A stretch of 64,000 bases of DNA from Eledone cirrhosa. Lineage: Eukaryota. Where the stretch lies: contig OZ024747.1 of NCBI GenBank assembly GCA_964016885.1, positions 67,146,001-67,210,000 of the forward strand. The letters run 5' to 3'. This document shows, one piece after another, positions 47,673 through 47,708 of the stretch. A program made the position numbers and the translations under genes. The first letter of the stretch is position 1, and each line of letters begins with the position of its first letter. A model generated the notes under the pieces. That model was not told the DNA's origin and made no database searches. It worked only from the letters and a program-made list of their open reading frames with translations.

Positions 47673-47708
47673 CCCCAGTTGATGGATGTGAATCCGAAAT
47701 ATATAGGG
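47673..47708 (+). ncRNA. Hammerhead-like motif, CAGUUGA core
   Basis: ccc CAGTTGA t GGAT gtga ATCC GAAA tata TA ggg. Confidence 0.6.

Follow-up and report, generated by a model that had tools for sequence, protein, structure and literature searches.

We identified a hammerhead-derived motif in a Penelope-like element (PLE) family of Eledone cirrhosa, here termed family A, in which the core CAGUUGA stands in place of the canonical CUGANGA. Three copies lie in the 64,000-nucleotide stretch of DNA analysed here (the window; Table 1). The exact 24-mer CAGTTGATGGATGTGAATCCGAAA has 2,599 matches genome-wide, and among the family A copies anchored on the open reading frame (ORF) 59 of 63 carry CAGTTGA and none the canonical form. 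These counts bear out the proposal of the initial annotation that the sequence is the consensus of the family and not the decay of single copies. With A4 and U6 prevailing and a canonical core absent from the anchored copies, we therefore class the motif as hammerhead-derived and not as a proven PLE hammerhead.

Table 1. Family A features and related motifs in the window
Feature	Position	Strand	Remarks
Hammerhead-derived motif	47673..47708	+	Sequence inspection, relaxed-descriptor match
Second motif copy, sense to ORF	46237..46272	-	C3 at 46269; 3' strand of stem I GAG
Third motif copy	8158..8193	-	C3 at 8190
5'-truncated Penelope-like element (insertion 2)	45958..47656	-	RT end, linker, GIY-YIG, 3' UTR with (CA)n, pLTR, tail
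ORF remnant of insertion 2	46751..47656	-	RT C-terminal part and GIY-YIG, frameshifted
Inverted pLTR arm of insertion 2	47658..47923	+	5'-truncated, terminating in (TA)n
Insertion 1, family A 3' end	7938..8832	-	Nuclease end, 3' UTR, pLTR
Splice-donor-like AAG/GTAAC (candidate)	47726..47735	+	About 23 nt 3' of AUA site
Canonical CUGAAGA hammerhead, sister family D	40684..40715	+	Same pLTR place as family A motif
Family B (Hydra clade) motif, CAGAAGA, U4A only	10731..10775	+	Separate element

The motif and its host element

The first copy listed in Table 1 opens with the 5' strand of stem I (CCC/GGG) at 47673-75, followed by the core C3-A4-G5-U6-U7-G8-A9 (CAGTTGA) at 47676-82. Stem II (GGAT-GTGA-ATCC at 47684-95, that is, GGAU/AUCC with a GUGA loop) leads into GAAA, TATATA (helix III palindrome AUAUAU, AUA site) and GGG, and the cut is predicted after 47705, 3' of AUA. 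The stems and core had been described correctly, but one extra T (U9.1) at 47683, between A9 and stem II, had been overlooked; such a base is described as usual in PLE hammerheads (PMC4209133). All three window copies read CAGTTGA, belong to two insertions and have hammerhead geometry, as annotated, except that the copy at 46237 lacks the CCC/GGG stem I ascribed to it. The identities measured for the three end repeats were 241/257, 228/257 and 220/258. Of the features of PLE minimal hammerheads, the motif has G10.1-C11.1, base 9.1, GAAA, a palindromic helix III and an NUH site; stem I is only 3 bp long, and A4 and U6 depart from the core C3-U4-G5-A6-N7-G8-A9.

The 7-mer CAGTTGA alone is not enriched in the window (10 observed, 7.9 expected). 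A relaxed descriptor that accepts any base at positions 4 and 6 matched none of 3000 dinucleotide shuffles of the pLTR; the whole geometry is thus not due to chance. Thermodynamic folding recovered stem II without unusual stability (z -0.66), and MFE and cofold models of the motif added nothing past this stem. Rfam covariance models gave zero matches in the family A pLTR at E values up to 10, and for the whole window the best 150 of 285 matches included no hammerhead, only repeat-driven miRNA matches.

Searches across the genome returned the same core. Specifically, 85 of the first 100 of 2,893 matches anchored on stem II read CAGTTGAT and none of those 100 CTGANGA. Canonical look-alikes of the family A pattern (51 matches) all have other loops, and the 15 whose flanks were examined differ there. 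Copies with intact ORFs had been singled out as informative, and two family A copies with uninterrupted ORFs (874-875 aa) are indeed flanked by CAGTTGA. Four full units, searched in their sense-strand non-coding part, contained no CUGANGA or 3-8 covariant except one CCGAAGA in a single copy, so that a canonical hammerhead elsewhere in the pLTR, which would have spoken against the annotation, did not appear. Single-step core forms are scarce (CAGATGA 6, CTGTTGA 32 matches). CTGTTGA was considered as an ancestral subfamily and rejected: of its 32 matches 28 were examined, and most of these are young copies with one altered base, products of inversion junctions, or CCG cores that probably decayed at CpG.

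Family A is an EN+ Penelope-like element, Nematis-like in its RT motifs and with a linker that is only partly typical. A single ORF encodes an RT plus, at the C terminus, a GIY-YIG domain and starts with MLQAN near the pLTR end, in agreement with the N-termini of relatives. A full-length relative with a complete pLTR-ORF-pLTR unit (L046) matches Pfam RVT_1 (E 1.3e-8) and, weakly, GIY-YIG (E 3.4e-4, just under the cut-off). Family A has pLTRs in partial tandem, an inverted 5'-truncated arm, an optional tail and (TA)n targets; the tail of insertion 2 extends into the ORF start. With the Nematis clade of EN+ PLEs (PMC8557442) it shares the C-terminal GIY-YIG, the partial tandem and inverted structure, and the motifs KTHK and DKG-x-EF, which were compared by eye with the published Nematis rows; all three KTHK matches in the supplement of Craig et al. 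2021 are Nematis rows (PMC8557442). Its linker shows C-x4-C without the third cysteine of the Nematis pattern CX2-5CxxC, a residue that is likewise missing in most close relatives and present in a Haemonchus relative (P0067). Canonical hammerheads have been described in PLEs other than Naiad/Chlamys (PMC8557442).

The ATG inside the motif was rejected as the ORF start: aligned N-termini place the beginning of the ORF about 270 nt downstream, and the frame of this ATG is not kept between subfamilies. Insertion 1 contains a 58-nt inversion of family A sequence (8775-8832) that runs in frame into what is left of a family B ORF; the resulting chimeric open frame spans 8612-9793 and encodes 393 aa. 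Elsewhere in the window we observed a 748-aa ORF of a second Hydra-like family (36785-39031, +; 37-39% identity to family B), non-LTR retrotransposon RT ORFs recognized by eye (21966-25247 (+), 205-903 and 4733-5806; a 1,093-aa open frame and remnants), Mariner-like transposase remnants, also by eye (1456-2295, -), and a long tandem array with 9- and 12-nt periods (56598-64000).

Descent and conservation of the motif

The family A motif evidently descends from a canonical hammerhead, as relatives carry CUGANGA in the same place and with the same geometry. The ORF of sister family D is 55.5% identical to that of family A over 868 aa, and the two families group together with support 99 in a quick tree. 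The family D hammerhead has the same build and pLTR place and a different stem II sequence; among the first 100 of its 3,818 matches, 65 read CCGAAGA and 35 CTGAAGA. Metagenomic relatives comprise 80 loci, 34 of them with at least 250 nt 3' of the ORF. Fourteen have a motif 3' of the ORF (12 of the 34 and two shorter ones): seven canonical, five A3-U8, one U3-A8 and one U4C. A4 or U6 cores occur in none of these 14, and the descriptor found no match in 22 of the 34 with enough 3' sequence.

Several observations accompany these relatives. Family D has many intact ORFs of about 860 aa (loci L266-L285, L382-L401), and U4C in about two thirds of its matches with canonical U4 in the remainder makes a natural pair; in a small sample, median divergence was 0.067 for T4 copies versus 0.022 (n=14 and 11). 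For family D, eight matches were candidates for 5' ends at the cut site, mostly palindromic junctions, a count that has no control position. In family A the cut site resembles the (TA)n target. The A3-U8 hammerheads (AUGANUA; metagenome contigs L125, L127, L130, L137 and L151) lie 47-91 nt 3' of the ORF and represent a natural third covariant of the 3-8 pair; the four present in the tree form one clade (support 96).

We distinguish four subfamilies of family A, labelled A1-A4, the oldest of which, subfamily A4, is not to be confused with the adenine at core position 4. Mean divergence from the own majority is 0.037, 0.065, 0.115 and 0.14 for subfamilies A1 to A4, respectively. Subfamily A2 (273 matches) has CAGTTGA, as does subfamily A1, together with a GCGA loop and a helix III shorter by one UA. 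The majority core of subfamily A3 is CCGTTGA (position 4: 16 C, 10 T, 1 G, 3 gaps; T6 in 29 of 31), and that of subfamily A4 is CCGACGA with a GUGAA loop (position 4: 14 C, 10 T, 1 A, 1 gap; A at position 6 in 25 of 27). An anchor free of the motif also brought up two intermediates, CCGTCGA and a CAGTTGA that still has the older loop of 5 nt. T at position 4 occurs in subfamily A3 at the same rate as T at other CpG sites (10/26 vs 17/60, p 0.45) and in subfamily A4 at a somewhat higher rate (10/24 vs 12/53, p 0.11); therefore, some subfamily A4 copies may be truly canonical.

The order of the subfamilies is based on their ages and on a midpoint-rooted pLTR tree, in which they form a ladder of subfamilies A4, A3, A2 and A1. 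A tree of degraded ORF fragments places the four together against family D (92) and does not order them. On this basis the series is mostly CCGACGA (oldest), then CCGUUGA, then CAGUUGA, with the changes to A4 and U6 as separate steps. Whatever the order, U6 coexists with C4 in older subfamilies, so that A4 and U6 do not form a compensating pair.

In the same comparison the remainder of the motif, core positions 4 and 6 excepted, is conserved beyond its flanks. Across the four subfamily majorities 30 of 34 motif columns are invariant versus 65 of 161 flank columns (Fisher p 1.7e-7), a difference inflated by the fact that subfamilies A2-A4 were reached via patterns containing part of the motif. 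The variable columns are core positions 4, 6 and 7 and one base of loop II, to which two fold-neutral indels are added. Fold-neutral changes affect the loop (GUGA/GCGA/GUGAA) and one UA unit of the helix III palindrome, after whose indel the NUH site is still in register. The flanking stems, whose lack of conservation would have told against the annotation, are all invariant in the four subfamilies, as are C3-G8, G5, A9 and G12-A14, and 9 of 11 strictly conserved core positions do not vary (p 0.006 at the flank rate). Of 30 old copies reached through the motif-free anchor, 9 extend across the motif, 3 break within it and 18 end 3' of it; all 9 spanning copies keep the stem II-GAAA-UAUA-GGG frame, private changes aside. 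When only the young subfamilies are compared, variable sites are not significantly fewer in the motif (p 0.075). No compensatory base-pair change was found within the four subfamilies, and a constraint at the level of the DNA or RNA sequence is therefore possible.

Conservation about equal to that of the motif is also seen in a second block of the pLTR, close to the ORF start. The block CCAT(A)CTGCATTGT near the pLTR end (window 47880-47905 with homologues, and the family D leader) is common to families A and D and conserved across the family A subfamilies. It is a candidate protein-binding or RT-start signal and contains an AG that may be an intron acceptor.

Altered cores are not confined to family A. 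In 905 kb of loci from the same genome the relaxed descriptor gave 22 clusters, most of them canonical, and U4 is replaced in families A, B, D and E. The CAGAAGA at 10731 had been assigned to a separate family, correctly so: it is the state of family B, with A4 in 94 of the first 100 of 24,677 matches and T4 in the remaining 6, which are palindromic inversion junctions. The family B protein has the Hydra motifs RW and DKT and CxCX5C; in the published Hydra/Chlamys table (PMC8557442) U4 and A6 stand in all rows. Family E has CCGAAGA (4 + 1 matches). Given the relationship between families A and D, C4 may go back to a single origin in both; the U4 change of family B is independent of theirs. Strict CUGANGA descriptors, as had been anticipated, miss at least about 3,200 copies of family A, 24,700 of family B and, out of 3,800 in family D, some two thirds, and statements on the presence or absence of hammerheads in PLE clades therefore need relaxed cores. 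Families with weakened cores are not the more numerous ones (bycatch per Mb: canonical families 1.8-8.9, B 4.9, D 1.1, A 0), and the idea that loss of cleavage boosts copy number was dropped as unsupported by these densities.

Further hammerheads were noted in passing. In family B (window 8830-10800, +; loci L055-L060, L101-L120) a branch-point-like TTGAC and a stretch rich in T precede the CAG, and the quasi-palindrome TTC(A/T)GAA is a frequent site of inversion junctions, which create false canonical cores there. Family E (L236, L243, L278) combines CCGAAGA with a long stem II, and canonical relatives of similar build occur in L056 and L209. Two families in the genome have the U3-A8 cores UUGAAAA and UUGAUAA (L054, L111, L240, L267). 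Canonical CUGANGA hammerheads of other PLE families are found in the window at 35021 (+), 11014 (-) and 48400 (-), that at 11014 lying 3' of a GIY-YIG ORF remnant (11230-12135, -).

Place in the transcript and possible function

The 5' ends of inverted arms cluster upstream of the motif, at -82 to -80 relative to the motif C3 in 22 of 83 arms and at -86 to -83 in 7 of 27 older arms. Most of these arms were found by way of the motif, and the sample is therefore poor in ends at the cut site. In subfamily A2 the arm ends fall at TCAGTTAGTC, which we take to resemble an initiator. Subfamilies A1-A4 and sister family D all have a donor-like AAG/GT similar to that in Table 1; contigs of four runs, which are uninformative on ends, contained no splice joint distinguishable from genomic rearrangement. 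That these runs list no variants at core positions was left out of account, since a known polymorphism near the end of the stretch was likewise unlisted. We infer that the motif would lie in the first exon of the leader, about 80 nt past the likely transcription start and before a likely intron. The arms that start upstream of it further suggest that uncut RNA is the template that is copied.

We tentatively interpret the motif as a throttled, probably protein-dependent ribozyme, an account to which we give a little less than an even chance. The CAGUUGA RNA likely cuts itself very little: naked RNA would show little or no cutting, and slow cutting would occur only with the element's own protein. 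Fast cutting in the 5' leader would leave the mRNA uncapped and the template shorter, and with a weakened CUGA turn most of the RNA would remain intact to be translated and reverse-transcribed. G8, G12, G5, the C3-G8 pair and the palindromic helix III would then be retained because low dimer- and protein-assisted cutting is still useful. The roles of general acid and base belong to G8 and G12 (PMC12192606), and the retention of G8, G12, G5 and C3-G8 fits residual catalysis at least as well as a non-cleaving fold. The two core changes may leave no useful rate: when the CUGA turn of a type III hammerhead was mutated, every single or double change apart from the C3/G8 swap gave low activity (PMC9901934). 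A broader proposal, which we regard as unlikely, is that PLE lineages here repeatedly tune hammerheads down at U4 (to C or A, in four families), followed in family A by A6U, with acid-base residues kept and the element's own protein replacing the lost U-turn contacts; these would be datable steps of a natural ribozyme toward a protein-dependent RNP enzyme.

It may also be that the conserved bases matter for nothing but the fold or the binding of protein. The main alternative, serious if doubtful, is that the hammerhead has lost catalysis and persists as a folded RNA, for binding of the RT/nuclease, dimerisation through the palindrome or leader structure. The two CUGA-turn changes predict near-inactivity (PMC9901934), cleavage is dispensable for insertion in vitro (PMC11167929), thousands of new copies arose with the CAGUUGA core, and the stems did not change across subfamilies. 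However, the retained bases are exactly the catalytic G8 and G12 together with G5 and C3-G8, which a pure binding fold need not keep, and the register of the NUH site survived the helix III indel; moreover, reverse transcription of the Anolis element begins at the tail near the ORF start and not at the hammerhead (PMC11167929). That the motif is a slowly decaying vestige, whose changes hitch-hiked on master copies and whose conservation reflects overlapping promoter or splicing signals or sampling, seems quite improbable. The stepwise accumulation of changes over time, the position downstream of a likely start site and upstream of a donor-like one, the lack of covariation within the lineage, the non-significant test on young subfamilies and the metagenomic relatives without a descriptor match are all consistent with it. 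Against it, both strands of two stems and nearly all of the strict core remained invariant while flanks changed at 60% of columns, family D has the same geometry on a different stem II sequence, and the motif-free anchor recovers an intact frame.

Two further explanations would restore or preserve full activity. The initial annotation had offered U4A plus A6U as an unusual active core; in a fully active variant the two bases would compensate each other, which we consider very improbable. U4 contacts the A6-N7 backbone (PMC3088659), the change looks like a U/A swap and family A stayed active. Yet U6 appears first on a mostly C4 background, and A4 stands with A6 in family B, so that the two are uncoupled, and the all-pairs scan of PMC9901934, in the data available there, reports no positive epistasis in the motif and no rescuing CUGA-turn double mutant other than the C3/G8 swap. 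Finally, the canonical core might be restored in RNA by a 3' splice site at CAG, by editing, or in a permuted hammerhead with a distant CUGANGA strand. C3-A4-G5 does spell CAG downstream of a pyrimidine-rich stretch, family B being the most convincing case, but splicing there would leave UUGA, still without A6, and the CCG of the older subfamilies and family D cannot act as an acceptor. A-to-I editing cannot yield U4 or A6. The search of four full units, with its one single-copy CCGAAGA, offers no strand for a permuted form. On the CCG ancestors and this search we rejected all three variants of restoration, which we regard as barely credible.

Comparison with known systems

PLE hammerheads cut poorly in vitro and dead mutants still insert, which raises the question of their role. 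Family A provides a natural allelic series within one lineage (CCGACGA, CCGUCGA, CCGUUGA, CAGUUGA), every member of which was amplified, and family D adds canonical and U4C forms side by side, both amplified. Cutting rates along this series, compared in the presence and absence of protein, would tell a required cleavage from a tuned or an irrelevant one. A literature search outside Lunse et al. 2017, Arkhipova et al. 2017 and the supplements of PMC4209133 and PMC3088659 yielded no description of A4 or U6 cores in PLE hammerheads.

The closest build is that of the minimal type I hammerheads of PLEs (Cervera and de la Pena 2014, PMC4209133), which likewise lie in the pLTR, sense to the ORF, with an extra base between 9 and 10.1, G10.1-C11.1, a palindromic helix III, a short stem I and a presumed dimer. 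They differ in their CUGANGA core, for which the cited part of that work names only the U3-A8 variant, whereas family A has CAGUUGA, a family-wide double change with datable intermediates. The hammerhead of the Anolis Poseidon element PAc (Frangione et al. 2024, PMC11167929) needs its protein for cleavage, and inactive mutants show normal insertion in vitro. It resembles that of family A in its pLTR place near the ORF start, its AT-rich targets and a 3' tail with two end points (+255 and +270 in family A). In contrast, the PAc core is canonical and the PAc ORF starts in stem II, whereas that of family A begins about 270 nt downstream. The same two positions are altered in natural U4C (viroid) and A6C (phage Bcep176) cores, each of low activity (Perreault et al. 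2011, PMC3088659). Those are single changes to C in isolated ribozymes, whereas family A combines A4 and U6 in thousands of copies.
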